64,000 nucleotides of DNA from Methylocystaceae bacterium (GTDB lineage: Bacteria > Pseudomonadota > Alphaproteobacteria > Rhodospirillales > Terasakiellaceae), in contig JABXIG010000003.1 in assembly GCA_013373205.1 (NCBI GenBank), forward strand, positions 969,853-1,033,852, given 5' to 3'. How positions within the stretch are numbered: the first letter of the stretch is position 1; each line of letters starts with the position of its first letter. Positions 53-43,397 of this stretch are shown here, piece after piece. A model generated the notes under the pieces. It was not told where the DNA came from. It was given only the letters and a program-made list of their open reading frames with translations, and searched no databases. The position numbers and the translations under genes are program-made.

Positions 53-418
53 CTACTCCCATTCCAGAGCTCCTTTCTTCCATTCGTAAACGAAACCGAT
101 GGTGAGAACACCAAGGAACACCATCATTGACCAAAAGCCAAACAGGCCTACATTCCCTAGTGAGATTGCCCATGGGAAGAGAAAGGCGACTTCAAGGTCG
201 AAAATGATGAAGAGAATGGCCACCAAATAAAAACGCACGTCGAATTTTGTACGGGCATCTTCAAAGGCAGCAAAACCACATTCAAATGCGGTATTTTTTT
301 CTGTATCGGGGCGCTGACGCACAACGATATAAGAGGCCCCAATCGCAATAACGGCAATAGCGATAGCAATGCCGAGAAAGATCAGGATCGGTAGATATTC
401 TTGCAGGAGTGCTTCCAT
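53..418 (-). CDS. nuoA: NADH-quinone oxidoreductase subunit A (first gene of the complex I operon, which continues off the left edge)
   Basis: 121 aa with three hydrophobic segments; KNTAFECGF loop, [21 protein letters not shown] and C-terminal [11 protein letters not shown] typical of NuoA. Confidence 0.97.
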
Positions 419-35460: not shown

Positions 35461-37165
35461 TAGTGCCCTGCCCCCCGGGCTGATCCTCATTCTTGGCGCA
35501 CTATTCCTGCCCTCCTTGGTCGGGAATGCCCGTAAGACAGCAATGTTGTTGTTACCCGTTTTGACCATGTATCTTATTTGGGCTGTGCCTGATGGGGTGC
35601 AATTAACGGTCCCGTTCCTTGATTACACACTTGAACCGTTGCAAGGTGATAAGCTATCGCGTTTGTTTGCGACCATCTTTACCTTAATGGCATTTGTTGG
35701 CGGTATTTTTGCCCTTAATCAAAAAAGCCAAATTGAACTAATGTCTGCATATGCCTATGCGGGCGGTGCTGTTGGTGTGGCAATGGCCGGGGACCTTGTC
35801 ACCGTCTTTATTTTCTGGGAATTTATGGCCGTTGCGTCAACCCTTGTGATCTGGTCAGCACGTACTAAAGAATCTTATGGGGCTTCCATGCGCTATGCCA
35901 TTGTGCATTTGTTTGGTGGTGTCATTTTAATGATCGGTGTGATTGGTCAAATTTATCATTCGGGTTCGGTTGAATTCTCAGCTATGAAAGCAGACAGCTG
36001 GTGGACATGGATGTTACTGGCGGGATTCTTAATCAACGCAGGTGCACCACCCTTTTCTTCATGGTTGCCTGACGCATACCCAAGCGCATCCTGGTCTGGT
36101 AGCGTGTTTCTGTCTGCCTTTACCACTAAGACAGCGGTTTATGTTCTGATCCGCAGTTTTCCCGGTGAAAACATTCTGATCTTTGTTGGTCTTTATATGG
36201 TGTTCTACGGGATTATCTATGCCCTTCTTGAAAATGACATGCGCCGTATTTTAGCTTATTCGATCATTAATCAGGTTGGCTTTATGGTCACTGGGATTGG
36301 AATTGGGACGGACATGGCGTTAAATGGCGCGTCTGCTCATGCTTTTGCCCATATCATCTATAAGGCACTGTTGCTGATGTCTGCAGGTGCTGTGATGTAT
36401 GAAATTAATAAGCGAAAATGTACGGACCTTGGCGGTCTTTACAAGGCTATGCCGCTTACAATGGTTTGCGGTACCATCGGTGCATTGGCGATTTCGGGCT
36501 TCCCGTTGACGTCTGGCTTTACGACCAAAACCATGATTGCCTCAGCGGCAGCAAGTGAACATATTGATTATGCGTGGTTCTTGCTGGAAGCAGCCTCAGC
36601 GGGTGTATTCCTCCACGCAGGGATCAAATTCCCGTGGTTTGTGTTCTTCCAACGCGCACCGGGCTATGTGGAACGTGAATTTGGTGCCAAGCCGAAAGAT
36701 CCACCGTTTAACATGAAACTAGCCATGGTCATTTTTGCTGGTTTTTGTATTGGTCTTGGTATCTATCCAGAACCACTTTATGCAATATTGCCTTACAGTG
36801 TAGATTTCGAACCCTATAAACCAGCCAAAGTCGTTCATATGCTGGAACTATTGCTCTTTTCCGGCTTTGCTTTCTTTGTCTTATTGAAGATGATGAAACG
36901 GACTTTAACCATCACACTGGATTTCGACTGGTTTTACCGTAAATTCTTCAATCTGCTGCATGAAGAATTTGTCATTAAACATGGTGGCGCGGCCTTTGCC
37001 GCCTTCAAAAGTGCTTCTTTGAAACGTGTTGATACCATTATCAAGCATGTCTTTAAACATCATGGACCAGAAGGTATCCTCGCACGGACATGGCCTACGG
37101 GCAGTATGGTTCTGTGGGTTGCTATTCTTTTAGGACTCTATCTGATAGTCTATTACGTCCTGTAA
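35450..37165 (+). CDS. Mrp antiporter subunit D family, paralog 3
   Basis: FIFWEFM, WLPDAYP, SAFTTKTAVY, RRILAYS, HAFAHIIYKALL. Confidence 0.88.
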   Translation: MMINSALPPGLILILGALFLPSLVGNARKTAMLLLPVLTMYLIWAVPDGVQLTVPFLDYTLEPLQGDKLSRLFATIFTLMAFVGGIFALNQKSQIELMSAYAYAGGAVGVAMAGDLVTVFIFWEFMAVASTLVIWSARTKESYGASMRYAIVHLFGGVILMIGVIGQIYHSGSVEFSAMKADSWWTWMLLAGFLINAGAPPFSSWLPDAYPSASWSGSVFLSAFTTKTAVYVLIRSFPGENILIFVGLYMVFYGIIYALLENDMRRILAYSIINQVGFMVTGIGIGTDMALNGASAHAFAHIIYKALLLMSAGAVMYEINKRKCTDLGGLYKAMPLTMVCGTIGALAISGFPLTSGFTTKTMIASAAASEHIDYAWFLLEAASAGVFLHAGIKFPWFVFFQRAPGYVEREFGAKPKDPPFNMKLAMVIFAGFCIGLGIYPEPLYAILPYSVDFEPYKPAKVVHMLELLLFSGFAFFVLLKMMKRTLTITLDFDWFYRKFFNLLHEEFVIKHGGAAFAAFKSASLKRVDTIIKHVFKHHGPEGILARTWPTGSMVLWVAILLGLYLIVYYVL

Positions 37166-37184
37166 AATAGGTCAGAAAGAATCT

Positions 37185-37217
37185 AAAAAATGGAGGCCAT
37201 TGTGCCTCCATTTCTTT
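37185..37217 (+). terminator. Intrinsic terminator after the Mrp cluster
   Basis: AAAAAATGGAGGC-CATTGT-GCCTCCATTTCTTT. Confidence 0.75.
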
Positions 37218-37374
37218 GTGATAATCATGATTTGAAACTTCATAATAGTAGTATTGTTTAATAATTTACACCCTTAGGCATTCTAATTTATAAAGAACAT
37301 ATTTGGAATTTATTCCTATTTTCTAAAGTGGCTCACAAGTTATTGAAATTGAATAATTATAAATTTGCTCGAAA

Positions 37375-37388
37375 TTGACTTAAGTCAT
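37375..37388 (+). promoter_or_regulatory. FNR/FixK-like box upstream of the cytochrome c peroxidase gene
   Basis: TTGAC-TTAA-GTCAT (near-palindrome resembling TTGAT-N4-ATCAA), with TACCAT at 37410-37415 placed where a class II -10 would lie. Confidence 0.55.
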
Positions 37389-37525
37389 AAGGTTTTTTTA
37401 GGACTCAAATACCATTGATGTGGTTATATTTTTTATAACCTCACAAGCCTAATAAGGTCAGTTGGAGACCAGAAGAAACTGACTTTATAGGGGGTATTGT
37501 TCTAACATGATCTAGGTGAGTTCTT

Positions 37526-38524
37526 ATGTTTAAGTATTCAAAAGCCGCAGCGATTGCTCTCGCTGTTTGCTTCCCACTTGTCTCACAGTCAGCCAGTGCG
37601 GAAGAACCAATTGAACCAATCACTGTAAAACCAGTTGAAGATGCAGCCATGGTTGAACTGGGTAAGAAATTGTATTTCGACCCACGTTTATCAAAATCTG
37701 GCTTTATCTCCTGTAACTCCTGTCACAATCTGTCCATGGGCGGGACAGATAACCTTAAAACCTCTATCGGACACAACTGGCAACAAGGTCCCATTAACTC
37801 CCCTACCGTTCTAAACTCTAGCCTGAACCTGGCACAGTTCTGGGATGGTCGCGCGATGAACCTGCAAGAACAAGCTGGTGGTCCGATTGCAAACCCAGGT
37901 GAAATGGCGTCAACACACGCCCTTGCATTGAAAGTTTTGCAATCAATTCCAGAATATGTTTCTGAATATAAAGCTGTCTTCAATACCGATAAAATTGATA
38001 TTGATGGTGTAACCAAAGCTATCGCAGCTTTTGAAGAAACACTGGTGACGCCGAACTCACCTTTTGACAAATGGCTGAAGGGTGACAAGAAAGCCCTGAC
38101 TGCACAAGAATTAGCTGGTTATGAACTGTTCAAAGATTCAGGTTGTACAGCCTGTCACAATGGCGCAGCTGCTGGCGGTAACACCTTTGAAAAAATGGGT
38201 GTTGTTGAACCATATCAAACCAAAAACGCTGCAGAAGGTCGTGCTGCGGTTACTAAAGATGAAGCAGACCGTTTCTACTTTAAAGTACCGACCTTGCGTA
38301 ACGTAGAACTTACCTACCCATACTTCCATGATGGCGAAGCTGCTACGTTAACAGATGCTGTTGATGTTATGGGCCGCATTCAATTGGGCAGATCCTTCAC
38401 TGATGAAGAAAACGCCAGCATTGTTGCATTCCTGAAGTCACTGACTGGGGAACAACCAACTTTTGCTATGCCGATCCTGCCACCATCAAACGATTCAACA
38501 CCTAAACCGCAACCTTTTGACTAA
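37526..38524 (+). CDS. ccpA: Periplasmic diheme cytochrome c peroxidase
   Basis: Signal peptide ending ASA; LGKKLYFDPRLS, two CXXCH (CNSCH, CTACH), QFWDGRA, FKVPTLRN, PYFHDG. Confidence 0.93.
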   Translation: MFKYSKAAAIALAVCFPLVSQSASAEEPIEPITVKPVEDAAMVELGKKLYFDPRLSKSGFISCNSCHNLSMGGTDNLKTSIGHNWQQGPINSPTVLNSSLNLAQFWDGRAMNLQEQAGGPIANPGEMASTHALALKVLQSIPEYVSEYKAVFNTDKIDIDGVTKAIAAFEETLVTPNSPFDKWLKGDKKALTAQELAGYELFKDSGCTACHNGAAAGGNTFEKMGVVEPYQTKNAAEGRAAVTKDEADRFYFKVPTLRNVELTYPYFHDGEAATLTDAVDVMGRIQLGRSFTDEENASIVAFLKSLTGEQPTFAMPILPPSNDSTPKPQPFD

Positions 38525-38549
38525 GGTCGTTCTGTCGTTTTAATAATGT

Positions 38550-38580
38550 ATACCCACGTTCTTTGATAGGACGTGGGTAT
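38550..38580. other. Intercistronic stem-loop between ccp and the TorC-like gene (no U-tract)
   Basis: ATACCCACGT-N11-ACGTGGGTAT perfect 10-bp inverted repeat. Confidence 0.7.
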
Positions 38581-38600
38581 TGCATTGATAATATAGGTTA

Positions 38601-39704
38601 ATGATGTCTAAGACGTTTCTGATTGCTTTTGTCAGTATGATTGCTGGTATTGTCCTGTGGGGTGGATTTAACACATTCATGGAAAAGACCAACACGCTAT
38701 CCTTTTGTATTTCTTGCCATGAAATGAAATCAACTGTTTATCAGGAATATAAGCAATCAAAACATTATCAAAATGCCTCAGGCGTTCGTGCCATTTGTTC
38801 AGATTGTCACGTGCCCAAAGACTGGACACACAAGCTAATCAGAAAAGTACAGGCAACCCGTGAATTATATCACTGGGCGGTCGGGTCGATTAATACACAA
38901 GAAAAATTTCAGACGGAACGATATACGTTGGCTAAACGCGAATGGAAACGTATGCGTGATAATGATAGCCGGGAATGTCGGAACTGTCATAGCTTTGAAG
39001 CGATGGCCTTTCATGAGCAAACCTTAAAGGCTTCTCGCGCCATGCAAGATGCCTATAAAAAAGGAAAAACCTGTATCGATTGTCACAAAGGCATTGCCCA
39101 TCAAATGCCGGATATCAACAAAGACAACCGCACTGTTTATCAAACTTTGTTGCAAAATGCCAAAACAAGTGTCCGCAGTATGCCGGATGATAAAACTGTT
39201 CTCTTCAGCAAAGCTATCTTTGTCAGCACAAATGCAGATAAACTCGGCCGTGTTGTTGCCGGGGCAACTGTTAAAACCATAAACGTTGAAACAGATTTTG
39301 TTCAAATACGGTTTAATGCCTGGCGCCGGCAGGCGCTTCCGGCAAAACTCTATACGGCACCAGAACGCAGACAAATGATTGCGCAGATAAGCGCGAGTGA
39401 CGATAAATCGATCCGGGTTTTAAAAACGGTTGAACCCGCTGATTCAAGTTACATATGGGAACAAGTCGAAGTCAGCGCTTGGACTGACAAAGGTGGTTTG
39501 TCCATTGAAGAAGATCGTATCGAAGAATATGCCGCAAAACTCTATGATGATAATTGCACATTGTGTCACACGAAATATAAAGCAAATGCCTATTCAGCAA
39601 ACGATTGGATTGGTCATTTTAATGCAATGAAAAGATTAACCCCGATGCAGGAACATGAGGCGGACATGCTTCTGTTCTACCTTCAGAACCATGCGAAGTC
39701 ATAG
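38601..39704 (+). CDS. NapC/NirT family pentaheme c-type cytochrome (TorC/DorC-like)
   Basis: N-terminal TM anchor, four CXXCH (CISCH, CSDCH, CRNCH, CIDCH) plus a fifth C-terminal CTLCH followed by the TorC-type tail ANDWIGHFNAM...LLFYLQNHAKS. Confidence 0.9.
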   Translation: MMSKTFLIAFVSMIAGIVLWGGFNTFMEKTNTLSFCISCHEMKSTVYQEYKQSKHYQNASGVRAICSDCHVPKDWTHKLIRKVQATRELYHWAVGSINTQEKFQTERYTLAKREWKRMRDNDSRECRNCHSFEAMAFHEQTLKASRAMQDAYKKGKTCIDCHKGIAHQMPDINKDNRTVYQTLLQNAKTSVRSMPDDKTVLFSKAIFVSTNADKLGRVVAGATVKTINVETDFVQIRFNAWRRQALPAKLYTAPERRQMIAQISASDDKSIRVLKTVEPADSSYIWEQVEVSAWTDKGGLSIEEDRIEEYAAKLYDDNCTLCHTKYKANAYSANDWIGHFNAMKRLTPMQEHEADMLLFYLQNHAKS

Positions 39705-39706
39705 AT

Positions 39707-40288
39707 TTATGTCTTTTTCTTCTTTTTCTGCTGAGAGGCCAGTGGCGTCGCCTGTGCCACTTTTCGTAAATTTGCCCCCCAGGACTTCACCTGAACGGGG
39801 CGGCCATCTTGTGAGCGCAAAATACGCGGTTTTAGCACCTTATCAACACCAGGTGCCTCTTTTGACTTGGTGAAGCTCTGAATCATCAGCTTATGGGAAA
39901 TTTCTACCCGATTTCCCTTTTGCTTGGCTTGTTGATAAGCAGGTGTTTTTTTACAAATGTCAGCCAACTTATCCGCCGAATATGAACCAAACCGCCGCCA
40001 GATCCCTTCCAGAAAGCTTTCTACGGGGCCAGGCATGGCTGTATTGAGGTAAAAAGAAGGTCTCCCCTGTTCAAAGGCACGAAAAACATGAGGTTCCAAC
40101 GGTCCCATGTCATCAGCGACAAAGACGCCTGGCGCTAGTTTACGGCCGTGGTAGGCAACACCAAAGTAACTTTGTGAAAGAAACAGTAAGCGATGCATCT
40201 TCATGGGTTGAAGATATTCGTTATCGTTTAAAGCGTGATCCATAAACCATGCGGCAACATCAAACATGGTTTCAACAGCTGCAGTCAT
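39707..40288 (-). CDS. Panacea/SocA-like (DUF4065, GepA-like) domain protein
   Basis: DVAAWF...LQPMKMHRLLFLSQSY...FVADDMGPLEPHVF resembles the DUF4065 pattern (KLQKLLYYAQ...F.A...GPV); basic C-terminal tail. Confidence 0.65.
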   Translation of the reverse strand: MTAAVETMFDVAAWFMDHALNDNEYLQPMKMHRLLFLSQSYFGVAYHGRKLAPGVFVADDMGPLEPHVFRAFEQGRPSFYLNTAMPGPVESFLEGIWRRFGSYSADKLADICKKTPAYQQAKQKGNRVEISHKLMIQSFTKSKEAPGVDKVLKPRILRSQDGRPVQVKSWGANLRKVAQATPLASQQKKKKKT

Positions 40289-40999: not shown

Positions 41000-41512
41000 T
41001 TATTGAGGCTTTAAATCATCGGGTAATTCAGGAGGAAGATCTGGTGAAACTGGTACAGGCTGAGAGCTCTGACGTTTTTGTATCGAATCGGTTGCATTTT
41101 CATTATAGACACATTGGAATGTAATGCGATTAGGCGTCATTAACGGGCAATCCCATTTGTCATTGTTCATGTATTTTAATTGCAGCGAAGATACCATAGC
41201 CTGAATGCGTTTAGATCGTTGAACAGAGCCTTCGAAGGCTTGCCCATCGGCAGAATTCTGAAGACTTGCTCCTCTGGCCTTTGCCCGTTGAACCAGATTT
41301 TCCACTTCTGTAATACGTTGGCCGCATTCGTCTTGGGCAATGCCATAAACAGTTTCTTTGCTATGCTTAGTATGGTCGAAACAAACAGAAACAGTTATTG
41401 GTTCTGTGGGGATTTCTGTAATACGGTTTCTTTTCCAGTCTTCGACGTATGGATCAAAGGTACAGGCCTGTAGTGCAAGCCCTATAAAACCGATAGTGAT
41501 TATTTTTTTCAT
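41000..41512 (-). CDS. Hypothetical lipoprotein (start taken at MKKII)
   Basis: MKKIITIGFIGLALQA-C lipobox; four further cysteines; Pro-rich tail; starts 10 nt after the AsmA stop. Confidence 0.75.
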   Translation of the reverse strand: MKKIITIGFIGLALQACTFDPYVEDWKRNRITEIPTEPITVSVCFDHTKHSKETVYGIAQDECGQRITEVENLVQRAKARGASLQNSADGQAFEGSVQRSKRIQAMVSSLQLKYMNNDKWDCPLMTPNRITFQCVYNENATDSIQKRQSSQPVPVSPDLPPELPDDLKPQ

Positions 41513-41522
41513 CAAAAACTCG

Positions 41523-43397
41523 TTAATCCAATAAATCCGTTTCTTCCACAACAAGATCACCATCTATCGCAGGTTCTGCAAGTTTTTCATTGTTGGGGAT
41601 CAAGCCTGAATGTAACCCCTTTTCCTGAATAATTGGTTTATCATTGTTGGCTGAGGTACGCATCATCAATTGATTAATAGGTCCAACGATATGGACATAT
41701 CCTTTGTGCGCAGCTTTTCCATCCGTTGGTGGGATTGTGCTGGTCAACTGGACTGTCAACGTCCGATCCAGCATATTCAGGTTTGCAAGCCCTTCCACAT
41801 CGACAAAAGGGGCAACAAATTTGATATCATCAGAGGTAACTTCGCCACGTTCACCTTTGAAATGCCCCTTGATTTCGGCGAATTCAAACATACCTAAGTT
41901 TTGCCCGTTTAAGGATTGAATAACATCGGGTTGTTTAAAATGACCGTCCAAAATTGAAAATTCCCCATGCACTTTCGAGGTCTTTAAAAATTGCATTAAA
42001 TTGTGACCTTGGGACTGAATTTCAAAGAAAAAATTCAATGCCCCGTTGGTTTGTAAATCCATTCCGGTGGCTTTTTGCAATTCTTTGATGGAAACGGCAC
42101 GCACATCCATGCGTAAGTCCATCACACCGTTATCCATTCCCTTATTCCAGCGAAAACGAACATTACTGATACCACCTAAAATATTGAGCCGATCACTCGT
42201 AACCGTAAGGCGCCCGTCATTTACATTAAGGTTCACATTAGGTGATATTGTCTCACCATTTGCGAGTTGAAGGCCCAGATATTTCACATTTACATCAGCA
42301 TCGAACGTATCAAATAAAAAATTCTCAAAATTGATCTTTTTAATTTTTTCAAAGCTTGGTGCATTGGCCTGCACTGTTTGCGCAGGAACAATTAGGTCCC
42401 CTGTGATTAAAGGCAGAGCATATTTAAAATCCACGGCCACGTTTGCGCTAAACTGTGACGGATTATGGGTATAGAGCAGGTCTTCAAGCTGTAGGCGTTG
42501 ATCACGTAACTTTACATGGGATTTAATCAGGACATTTTCGCTTTTTTCTTCACAGAATTCGCGTTTGTTAAACCAGGTGCAATAATCATAAACCGAGGGT
42601 ATATCCAAACGGACATCGCCTTGGGCAACAAAGGATTGACGCCGCGCGGCATTGCCCTGAAAGTCAACTTTTAAAGGTGCCGAGTCCAGTTGGAATGCAA
42701 GATCACTTCTAAATCCACGCAAAAAATCATCTGGACGCTGTAAGCGCATGTTTAAATCAACACTTCGGTTATTGATGTACAGATTACTTTCTAACGTGAA
42801 ATCTTTGCCGCCACTGGGCTTTTCTAGATTGACCTCAAGCTTTTGAATTGTAATGACTTTATCTTCGCCCTTGTTCCACTGAAGCGTACCCTCATTGAGC
42901 TTGGCTTTTTCAAAGACAGAATCTTCCATGAAATGAAGCAAGACTTCGAGATATCGAATGTCTTCTTTTCGTGCAGCGCTCAGGTTCGTACGGATCACAT
43001 CTGGGAGATGAGGTGTAAAATCACCATTAATGGTCATGCGGGGATTATATAGCAGGAAATCATCAACATGAATGTCGCCAGTCAGAAAATCCAGACCGTC
43101 CAGCTCAAGACTAATTTTTTCAATCGATCCTAAAGTTTCTACTTCTCCAATCATGGTGCCGTAGAAATCGACATTTTCCGCCTCAAGAATGACTGTTGGG
43201 AATAAACTGAATGAGAACTCCCCTTTGAACTGAAAGTCCAGCCCAGTTGATTTATCAAGCTGTTGTTCAAGCAGGTTTTGATAAACACTGGAAGGCAAGA
43301 GGAACGGGGTCGCAATAAGTCCGAGCAGTATTACCAAAAAAATCATGGTAATCTTCGACCTTATCCACGTTACACTTAAGCCTTCGAACTGAAGCAT
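41523..43397 (-). CDS. AsmA family protein
   Basis: N-terminal TM anchor followed by LPSSVYQNLLEQQLDKSTG...FSLFPTV, long beta-rich body, C-terminal VHIVGPINQL. Confidence 0.8.
   Translation of the reverse strand: MLQFEGLSVTWIRSKITMIFLVILLGLIATPFLLPSSVYQNLLEQQLDKSTGLDFQFKGEFSFSLFPTVILEAENVDFYGTMIGEVETLGSIEKISLELDGLDFLTGDIHVDDFLLYNPRMTINGDFTPHLPDVIRTNLSAARKEDIRYLEVLLHFMEDSVFEKAKLNEGTLQWNKGEDKVITIQKLEVNLEKPSGGKDFTLESNLYINNRSVDLNMRLQRPDDFLRGFRSDLAFQLDSAPLKVDFQGNAARRQSFVAQGDVRLDIPSVYDYCTWFNKREFCEEKSENVLIKSHVKLRDQRLQLEDLLYTHNPSQFSANVAVDFKYALPLITGDLIVPAQTVQANAPSFEKIKKINFENFLFDTFDADVNVKYLGLQLANGETISPNVNLNVNDGRLTVTSDRLNILGGISNVRFRWNKGMDNGVMDLRMDVRAVSIKELQKATGMDLQTNGALNFFFEIQSQGHNLMQFLKTSKVHGEFSILDGHFKQPDVIQSLNGQNLGMFEFAEIKGHFKGERGEVTSDDIKFVAPFVDVEGLANLNMLDRTLTVQLTSTIPPTDGKAAHKGYVHIVGPINQLMMRTSANNDKPIIQEKGLHSGLIPNNEKLAEPAIDGDLVVEETDLLD

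Follow-up and report, generated by a model that had tools for sequence, protein, structure and literature searches.

Two neighbouring genes in a 64,000-nucleotide stretch of an alphaproteobacterial genome (the window), encoding a di-haem cytochrome c peroxidase (Ccp) and a TorC-like pentahaem cytochrome, probably specify a two-protein quinol:hydrogen-peroxide oxidoreductase that bypasses the bc1 complex. A single helix holds the TorC-like protein in the inner membrane, where its NapC/NirT-type tetrahaem domain would take electrons from quinol. From the C-terminal mono-haem domain of the same protein the electrons would go to Ccp, which is soluble and periplasmic, entering it at the electron-entry (E) haem, and the second haem of Ccp would reduce H2O2 to water. 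Electrons would pass in this way from the quinol pool to H2O2 without the bc1 complex or a free soluble cytochrome c. The cell would draw on this route when oxygen is low or peroxide stress sets in, with the cytochrome expressed by read-through of an intercistronic hairpin.

The two genes and their products

The preliminary description had placed ccp upstream of the TorC-like gene on the same strand, with a 76-nt spacer, a convergent next gene and neither torA/dorA nor torD beside the pair. The coordinates confirm this layout (spacer 38525-38600, Table 1): the flanks are occupied by the mrp antiporter operon upstream and by a SocA-like gene downstream, which ends 2 nt past the TorC-like stop codon. 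The stretch first described opens at 37375, which is not where ccp begins: the first possible start codon is at 37526, and a palindrome in the promoter region, 151 nt ahead of that codon, has 37375 as its first base.

Table 1. Features of the ccp/TorC-like locus and its borders, in window coordinates
Feature	Position	Strand	Details
Bidirectional intrinsic terminator, end of mrp operon, left edge of 2.5-kb insert	37185..37216	.	13-bp stem, T runs on both strands
AT-rich promoter/leader region of ccp	37217..37525	+	GC 0.30 over 350 nt upstream of ccp
Palindrome TTGACTTAAGTCAT	37375..37388	.	7/8 core positions of the FNR/FixK-type box TTGA-N6-TCAA
Di-haem cytochrome c peroxidase (ccp)	37526..38524	+	332 aa; ORF list, profile and structure-chain searches
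Intercistronic stem-loop, then weak U tract	38546..38585	+	core TACCCACGT-11 nt-ACGTGGGTA at 38551-38579
TorC-like pentahaem cytochrome gene	38601..39704	+	367 aa; ORF list, PF03264, TIGR02162
SocA/Panacea-like gene, outside the module, right edge of insert	39707..40288	-	same position in 9/9 genus relatives examined

The Ccp has two haem motifs only (CNSCH at residue 63, nt 37712-37726, and CTACH at residue 207, nt 38144-38158), with neither an extra N-terminal haem domain nor a transmembrane (TM) anchor. A Sec signal peptide covers residues ~1-24 with a predicted cleavage at MFKYSKAAAIALAVCFPLVSQSAS/AEEP, and the mature chain of the Nitrosomonas europaea peroxidase 1IQC begins at the position aligned to residue 25. 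The protein matches PF03150 (CCP_MauG) with an E-value of 7e-61, the alignment spanning positions 2-149 of 149 in the profile. The closest solved structure is 1IQC (E 1e-144, 68.5% identity over 308 residues without gaps), and Shewanella CcpA (3O5C) matches with E 1.8e-130 and 62% identity. By its sequence, the window Ccp is a classical soluble periplasmic bCcp, for which H2O2 reduction is predicted. The N. europaea Ccp and the Ccp of a Gallionella MAG are 68-74% identical to the module Ccp; the latter shares 74% identity with the window Ccp and has no TorC-like neighbour. A search for module-specific residues found E200 as the sole residue separating module Ccps from other Ccps, and a single residue is not enough to propose a specialised docking surface. 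The module Ccp is barely specialised, and this counts against the proposed two-protein system.

Motif positions and profiles confirmed that the second gene encodes a membrane-anchored protein with five CXXCH motifs (residues 36, 66, 126, 158 and 319) and a TorC-type C-terminal mono-haem domain, as had been described. A TM helix (residues ~4-30) is followed by a NapC/NirT tetrahaem domain (~31-175), a beta-rich middle domain (~195-300) and the C-terminal mono-haem domain, which contains CTLCH at residue 319 and an invariant Met343. Residues 5-171 align with positions 8-173 of 174 in the NapC/NirT profile PF03264 (3.5e-71). The torC model TIGR02162 aligns at full length (residues 10-366 with model positions 21-380 of 387) with a score of 349.9 bits, below the equivalog cut-off of 478.2, and NF011606 scores 272.3, below its cut-off of 455. 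The TM helix and the four-haem domain make the protein, at the sequence level, a member of the NapC/NirT family, and quinol oxidation is predicted. TorC-type quinol dehydrogenases are not electrogenic, so that any gain from 'respiration' would come solely from the upstream dehydrogenases. Comparison within the family showed that R243 is invariant in the ccp-linked clade and is Q in TorA-linked proteins, and that the ccp-linked clade has lost H330 and R355, both characteristic of the TorA-linked group. A sequence search of PDB chains gave no match for the TorC-like protein, and a Foldseek search of the PDB with its AlphaFold model gave no significant match (best E 0.086). The model (pLDDT 74) was used for the domain layout only; its haem domain is poorly modelled because the haems are absent.

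A promoter-like site, identified as a consensus match only, lies at 37218-37246. FNR/FixK-type boxes like the window palindrome are enriched upstream of ccp in a set of 13 loci, being perfect in 3 (0.04 expected) and matching at least 7/8 positions in 7 (0.98 expected). The neighbours of the module include a catalase gene in Azospirillum, Dps in R. palustris, Irr-like Fur regulators at four loci and an OxyR-like regulator at one. Regulation of the module by low oxygen or peroxide is suggested. The intercistronic stem-loop has an MFE of -26.6 kcal/mol (z = -4.5 against shuffled sequences), and a strong hairpin is also present in the spacer of 13/13 other loci, with U runs in several. The presence of a strong terminator-like hairpin in every spacer makes separate or very unequal expression of the two genes possible, and co-transcription is therefore only putative.

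Conservation and transfer of the gene pair

The adjacency of the two genes, seen at first in the window, is conserved. The ccp gene lies directly upstream of the TorC-like gene on the same strand at 15/15 loci of the clade, comprising the window and 14 others. The loci read are from Magnetospirillum, Azospirillum, Rhodopseudomonas, Rhodoblastus, Siculibacillus and uncultured Rhodospirillaceae. The flanking genes differ in every lineage, whereas the pair and its order are fixed, and no third gene is conserved with the module at the loci read. In a further 23 pairs of Ccp and TorC-like matches, the two members agree exactly in the length of the longest contig, which is indirect evidence of linkage. 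Correlated pairwise distances (Mantel r = 0.86, P = 0.0002) point to a shared history of the two proteins. The module is rare, with 0/400 carriers among genomes sampled evenly across the class. A scan of genome contigs gave at least seven close relatives among the matches listed, which were mostly NapC proteins.

Placed in a tree of TorC, TorY and DorC proteins, the ccp-linked cytochromes form one clade apart from all TorA-linked ones (SH-aLRT 100). The clade contains 103 rows, with no TorA-linked, multihaem-linked or orphan member. It nests among the alphaproteobacterial DorC-type proteins, and the groups sister to it consist of canonical torC-torD-torA loci. Elsewhere in the family, TorC-like subclades have 10-12-haem or 5-haem cytochromes as partners.

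Comparisons with genomes of the same genus showed that mrpD and the SocA-like gene are adjacent, ~100 nt apart, in 8/9 genomes, with only an equivalent hairpin between them. In the window, a 2.5-kb insert between these two genes holds exactly ccp and the TorC-like gene. The pair was transferred as a unit, and the pairing is not a matter of chance. Conservation and joint movement of the two genes among alphaproteobacteria make it most likely that Ccp receives membrane electrons from the cytochrome.

Electron partners and alternative readings

The usual partner of a TorC protein, for which the preliminary description had proposed a genome-wide check, is missing from the window's genome. No unlinked torA/dorA was found in this genome, which is 100% complete, using PF00384 and TIGR00509. 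The PF00384 matches are limited to NuoG, an FdhA-like protein and a 685-aa molybdenum enzyme; the last has no Tat signal and would therefore be cytoplasmic and out of reach of the TorC-like protein. TIGR00509, whose cut-off is 1017 bits, reaches no more than 150 bits in this genome. Only 2/7 module-bearing genomes have a TIGR00509 match above the cut-off, and in both the reductase is accompanied by a tri-haem cytochrome of its own, encoded next to it; 4/6 carriers besides the window's genome also have no TorA/DorA-type reductase. An unlinked torA/dorA as the user of the TorC-like protein is thus ruled out for the window's genome and for 4/6 other carriers searched. Taken together, the conserved adjacency, the separate clade and the absence of an unlinked torA/dorA best support a repurposed TorC as the quinol donor, and we infer that electrons are transferred directly from the TorC-like protein to Ccp with quinol as their source.

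A conventional route is available, since the genome encodes a bc1 complex, from which electrons could reach Ccp through cytochrome c, and a second Ccp paralogue. Soluble carriers are also a natural consideration because small cytochromes or cupredoxins are the normal donors of classical bCcps (PMC10301912). The TorC-like protein could reduce such a periplasmic carrier, which would pass the electrons on to Ccp, or it could be a CymA-like hub with Ccp as one of several acceptors. The second paralogue, the near identity in character of the module Ccp and stand-alone Ccps, and the many small single-CXXCH ORFs in the raw ORF list of the genome are all in line with such an indirect link. However, the TorC architecture has a built-in mono-haem shuttle domain, the module has no third conserved gene, and the strict 15/15 linkage and the two-gene co-transfer point to a self-sufficient pair, and we regard an indirect link as unlikely. 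Somewhat less likely still is that the adjacency reflects shared regulation or inherited gene order, with bc1 and cytochrome c feeding Ccp and the TorC-like protein serving an unlinked, unrecognised reductase, either a non-molybdenum enzyme or the Tat-less 685-aa molybdoenzyme. The terminator-like hairpin between the genes at all loci and the presence of bc1 would fit this explanation, as would the promiscuity of the TorC-like family, whose other subclades have quite different partners. Against it, the pair and its order are fixed amid changing flanks, the pair alone was inserted into the window's genome, a periplasmic molybdenum reductase is absent from 5/7 carrier genomes, and the 685-aa enzyme has no Tat signal.

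The substrate of the di-haem protein might also be other than H2O2, with the protein carrying out a MauG/MbnH-like protein modification or acting on another oxidant and the cytochrome supplying or removing electrons. The CCP_MauG superfamily has non-peroxidase members, and the top NCBIfam matches of the window Ccp are the MauG and MbnH models. Both matches are far below threshold (173 and 154 bits against cut-offs of 444 and 363), and MauG chains in the PDB match with 1e-24 only, compared with the gapless alignment to 1IQC, a crystallised active peroxidase. A MauG-like identity is ruled out by these scores and by the much closer relation to 1IQC. Peroxide-stress genes are found as neighbours of the module and no gene for a substrate protein is linked to it, so that a substrate other than H2O2 is very improbable.

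The direct quinol-to-Ccp route can be set in a wider evolutionary frame, to which we give an even chance of being correct. A whole clade of orphan TorC proteins would have exchanged its molybdenum reductase partner for a haem peroxidase, giving rise to a horizontally mobile, self-contained two-gene quinol peroxidase. Microaerobic alphaproteobacteria could use it to respire H2O2, or to detoxify it, independently of bc1. With its sister subclades, the TorC scaffold would then be a general, re-targetable 'quinol dehydrogenase plus docking domain' platform rather than a Tor/Dor-specific one, and the conserved terminator would set a high peroxidase-to-donor ratio.

Relation to known quinol-linked systems

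If the two-protein quinol peroxidase is confirmed, a function could be given to a well-populated clade whose members are now named 'NapC/NirT family cytochrome c' or, wrongly, 'TMAO reductase subunit TorC', and whose carriers include Azospirillum, Magnetospirillum and Rhodopseudomonas. The pair would represent a third architecture coupling the quinol pool to periplasmic H2O2, besides the tri-haem YhjA/QPO proteins and the three-protein Shewanella chain, and would indicate that a classical di-haem peroxidase can own a dedicated membrane donor. The proposal bears on the use or survival of H2O2 by microaerobes at oxic-anoxic interfaces and is directly testable in genetically tractable carriers. 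Searches of the openly accessible literature on ccp with TorC, NapC or pentahaem partners, and on FixK and ccp, revealed no description of the pair.

The TorC-like protein has the five-haem layout of TorC, DorC and TorY, encoded in the torCAD, dorCDA and torYZ operons: a TM helix leads into a NapC-type tetrahaem domain, and a mono-haem domain forms the C-terminal end. Unlike these proteins, its partner is a haem peroxidase, no TorA/DorA/TorD is adjacent, and most carriers have no TorA/DorA genome-wide. Tri-haem peroxidases draw electrons from quinol (PMC10301912). Like Escherichia coli YhjA, A. actinomycetemcomitans QPO and Z. mobilis PerC, the pair would deliver electrons from the quinol pool to periplasmic H2O2 independently of bc1, using a membrane anchor (PMC10301912). 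Each of those enzymes is a single protein, its bCcp core extended by one N-terminal haem domain and a TM helix, whereas here a soluble two-haem Ccp is combined with a separate five-haem NapC-type protein, and the quinol site is of an unrelated type. In Shewanella, the NapC-family CymA reduces CcpA via the mono-haem ScyA (PMC4335978). The CymA-ScyA-CcpA chain of Shewanella oneidensis likewise combines a NapC/NirT quinol dehydrogenase, a mono-haem carrier and a classical di-haem peroxidase. However, its components are encoded by three separate genes and CymA is a general hub, whereas in the present pair the tetrahaem and mono-haem parts belong to one polypeptide whose gene is fixed beside ccp. 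The pair is best read as analogous to a fused CymA-ScyA-CcpA chain and to a tri-haem quinol peroxidase split in two.

Gene layout and identity of the two proteins

The ORF table bore out the arrangement claimed in the preliminary description: ccp, encoding a di-haem cytochrome c peroxidase, and a torC-like gene, encoding a cytochrome with five CXXCH motifs, lie on the same strand with a spacer of 76 nt, and the next gene is convergent. However, position 37375, given there as the start, has no start codon; the palindrome TTGACTTAAGTCAT begins there. The mrp antiporter operon upstream is followed by a strong bidirectional terminator, which means that ccp must have its own promoter in the AT-rich stretch beyond it. 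Further downstream, a 187-aa hypothetical ORF (41000-41563) overlaps the start of an AsmA-family gene (41523-43397, minus strand) by 41 nt; both are kept in relatives of the genus, the 187-aa protein being far more divergent (47-66% identity).

Features of the module and its surroundings (window positions, or residues of the TorC-like protein)
Feature	Position	Strand	Remarks
mrp antiporter operon	end at 37165		upstream of ccp
Strong bidirectional terminator	37185-37216		closes the mrp operon
AT-rich stretch	37217-37525		before ccp
Palindrome TTGACTTAAGTCAT	37375-37388		the window's FNR/FixK-type box copy, upstream of ccp
ccp	37526-38524	+	332 aa; CXXCH at residues 63 and 207; typical Sec signal peptide
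Intercistronic stem-loop	38546-38585		in the spacer; weak U tract
torC-like gene	38601-39704	+	367 aa; CXXCH at 36, 66, 126, 158 and 319; hydrophobic N-terminal helix
SocA/Panacea-like gene	39707-40288	-	convergent; weak profile match; ends 2 nt past the torC-like stop codon
TM helix	residues 4-30		AlphaFold model
Tetrahaem region			AlphaFold model; poorly modelled, haems absent from the model
Beta-rich middle domain	residues about 195-300		AlphaFold model; confident
Helical C-terminal domain			AlphaFold model; carries haem 5

The Ccp matches PF03150 at 7e-61 in the profile search. Sequence comparisons showed 68.5% identity over 308 residues with zero gaps to the crystallised di-haem peroxidase of Nitrosomonas europaea (1IQC) and 62% identity to Shewanella oneidensis CcpA (3O5C). 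The best E value against MauG chains is 1e-24, and the scores against the NCBIfam MauG/MbnH models are far under the cut-offs. Judged by sequence, the di-haem protein of the module belongs to the classical bacterial cytochrome c peroxidases. The same genome encodes a second classical Ccp paralogue with 43% identity (contig C9, 91589-92581) and, on contig C59 (1259148-1260356), a more distant di-haem CCP_MauG-family protein with 32% identity, both outside the window.

The TorC-like protein has a NapC/NirT domain match at 3.5e-71. Its alignment to TIGR02162, the TorC model, covers the full length but scores 349.9 bits against a cut-off of 478.2, indicating a TorC architecture rather than a TorC equivalog. 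Its AlphaFold model has a mean pLDDT of 74, and no solved relative was found in the PDB by sequence or fold search. The closest homologues share only ~50% identity with it and belong to Magnetospirillum, Azospirillum, Rhodopseudomonas, Skermanella and uncultured Rhodospirillaceae.

Conservation and joint transfer of the pair

The preliminary description had proposed placing the cytochrome among TorC, TorY and DorC. A tree of 149 pentahaem proteins, including E. coli TorC and TorY, placed all ccp-linked proteins in one clade (103 rows, SH-aLRT 100), in which no member has another known partner. This ccp clade nests among alphaproteobacterial DorC-type proteins, its neighbours being canonical torC-torD-torA loci; within the clade, the window's protein has a long branch, which leaves its exact placement uncertain. 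The adjacency of ccp and torC also proved conserved: in all 15 ccp-clade loci read, a CCP_MauG gene directly precedes the cytochrome gene in the same orientation. Besides the window, these include Magnetospirillum sp. XM-1, a JGI bin, Azospirillum sp. TSH58, Rhodospirillaceae UBA6219, two A. brasilense strains, A. isscasi, R. palustris XCP, three basal clade members, the nearest tree neighbour of the window and the locus whose Ccp is the most similar (86% identity). The genes flanking the module are unrelated between lineages. Indirect support for the pairing comes from 23 further Ccp/TorC-like match pairs for which the length of the longest contig is identical.

Every full-length homologue outside the ccp clade has a different partner: torD and torA (often with torS/torR), a 10-12-haem cytochrome, a 5-haem cytochrome, or none. 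It seems that the TorC scaffold works with several partners that are not molybdoenzymes. In loci read from related genomes, genes of other TorC-like subclades have as neighbours, instead of TorA, either 10-12-haem cytochromes of 720-810 aa, in L022 (7346-9520), L023 (7233-9665), L024 (3372-5807) and L037 (4323-6683), or 5-haem cytochromes of ~420 aa, in L026 (7362-8630) and L038 (3463-4722).

Divergence is much lower among the partner Ccps than among the cytochromes (mean pairwise distance of 0.22 vs. 0.45), and the two distance matrices are correlated (Mantel r = 0.86, P = 0.0002), indicating that the genes share a history. The ccp-linked form is absent from ten genomes of the same genus. In eight of nine mrpD regions from such genomes, mrpD, one terminator hairpin and the SocA-like gene follow one another, with mrpD and the SocA-like gene about 100 nt apart, and the genes downstream match those of the window. 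The 2.5-kb insert of the window, from the terminator to the SocA-like stop codon, holds exactly ccp and the torC-like gene, which is independent evidence for a self-sufficient functional unit acquired together. In the ninth relative, the junction is occupied by an unrelated gene encoding 510 aa (L115, 7237-8769). The mrpD/SocA-like junction (37166-39706, compared with L114-L122) behaves as an insertion hot spot. The SocA/Panacea-like gene is present at this position in all nine relatives (75-90% identity) and is thus a core gene of the genus rather than cargo of the insert.

Other partners and alternative readings

The absence of an unlinked torA/dorA held throughout the 100% complete assembly, in which PF00384 and TIGR00509 profile searches found no TorA/DorA. 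PF00384 matches only three proteins, by sequence NuoG, an FdhA-type formate dehydrogenase (939 aa) and an enzyme of 685 aa with the N-terminus MCSEIVKSVCPHDCPSVC and no Tat signal; for TIGR00509 (BisC/TorA/DorA family) the cut-off is 1017 bits and the best score 150. The genome has just one further NapC/NirT gene, which encodes a 180-aa tetrahaem protein in a sulfur-oxidation-like cluster on another contig (C53:101346-108671), together with an FccAB-like flavocytochrome pair, a SoxA-like di-haem protein and a 440-aa tetrahaem cytochrome made of two di-haem repeats. Among seven module-bearing genomes searched, five lack a BisC/TorA/DorA-family enzyme. In the other two, R. palustris XCP and A. 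brasilense BR 11650, the reductase directly adjoins a distinct tri-haem cytochrome (542-547 aa) whose C-terminal domain is TorC-like, indicating that the reductase has its own donor. At these loci (L125, 2514-7289, and L126, 4190-8942, respectively) the cytochrome precedes a Tat-exported TorZ/TorA-like reductase; its last ~170 residues are 31-34% identical to the E. coli TorC C-terminal domain, and its N-terminal part is not NapC-like.

Mere co-location of two genes with separate functions is weakened by the strict linkage amid changing flanks, the joint transfer and the lack of another periplasmic partner. A non-peroxidase role of the di-haem protein is very unlikely in view of its identity to 1IQC. 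Electrons might instead reach the Ccp indirectly through a soluble carrier, or the cytochrome might be a hub; both are plausible because the module Ccp differs very little from stand-alone Ccps. No TorC-like gene adjoins a Gallionella Ccp with 74% identity, and comparison of 14 module Ccps with three stand-alone Ccps showed a single module-specific residue, E200 (38123-38125), six residues ahead of the second CXXCH, which is invariant in the former and N, Q or K in the latter. In the TorC-like protein, R243 (39327-39329) is invariant in the ccp clade and is Q in TorA-linked proteins. The ccp clade does not conserve H330 and R355, which characterise the TorA-linked proteins. That E200 and R243 could form a contact pair is pure speculation.

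Expression and proposed electron route

FNR/FixK-type boxes (TTGA-N6-TCAA) upstream of ccp are far commoner than in shuffled sequence: three of 13 loci have a perfect box (0.04 expected) and seven match at least 7 of 8 positions (0.98 expected). In other genomes, several genes linked to oxidative stress or to iron and haem adjoin the module: the Azospirillum loci have a catalase, R. palustris has Dps, four loci have Irr-like Fur-family regulators, and one has an OxyR-like LysR regulator and a haemerythrin. These features would fit expression that responds to low oxygen and/or peroxide, a pattern known from other bacterial peroxidases. The ccp/torC-like spacer contains a strong hairpin in all 14 loci examined (z = -1.5 to -4.7 vs. 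shuffles), and in several spacers (L009, L027, L111 and L124) this hairpin, complete with a U run, is a textbook example of an intrinsic terminator. In the window and, judged by their spacer sequences, in L009 and L111, the cytochrome start codon comes only about 15-30 nt after the hairpin, leaving little room for an independent promoter. Thus, the cytochrome may be expressed by partial read-through, with the peroxidase much in excess of its donor. Separate transcription is the alternative, for which a promoter-like match at 38563-38592 overlaps the hairpin.

In the proposed route, the NapC-type tetrahaem domain would oxidise quinol and pass electrons to haem 5 in the C-terminal domain, from which they would reach the E haem of the peroxidase and then the peroxidatic haem, where H2O2 would become water. 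NapC/TorC-type quinol oxidation is not electrogenic, so energy conservation would rest on upstream dehydrogenases. Since the genome also encodes bc1 and the second Ccp paralogue, the module would be an additional, bc1-bypassing route rather than the sole one.

The proposed two-gene module has solid comparative support and is moderately surprising. No description of a ccp-torC pair or a TorC-type peroxidase donor was found in the literature open to searching, subscription-only reviews excluded; the components and overall chemistry are known, but not the architecture or the partner switch. Classical Ccps are described as drawing electrons from small soluble cytochromes or cupredoxins (PMC10301912). 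The reaction would be the same as that of the tri-haem quinol peroxidases YhjA, QPO and PerC (PMC10301912). Compared with the Shewanella chain of CymA, ScyA and CcpA (PMC4335978), the module would be a fused version, in which the TorC architecture joins a CymA-like domain to a built-in mono-haem carrier, whereas CymA and ScyA are separate proteins in Shewanella.
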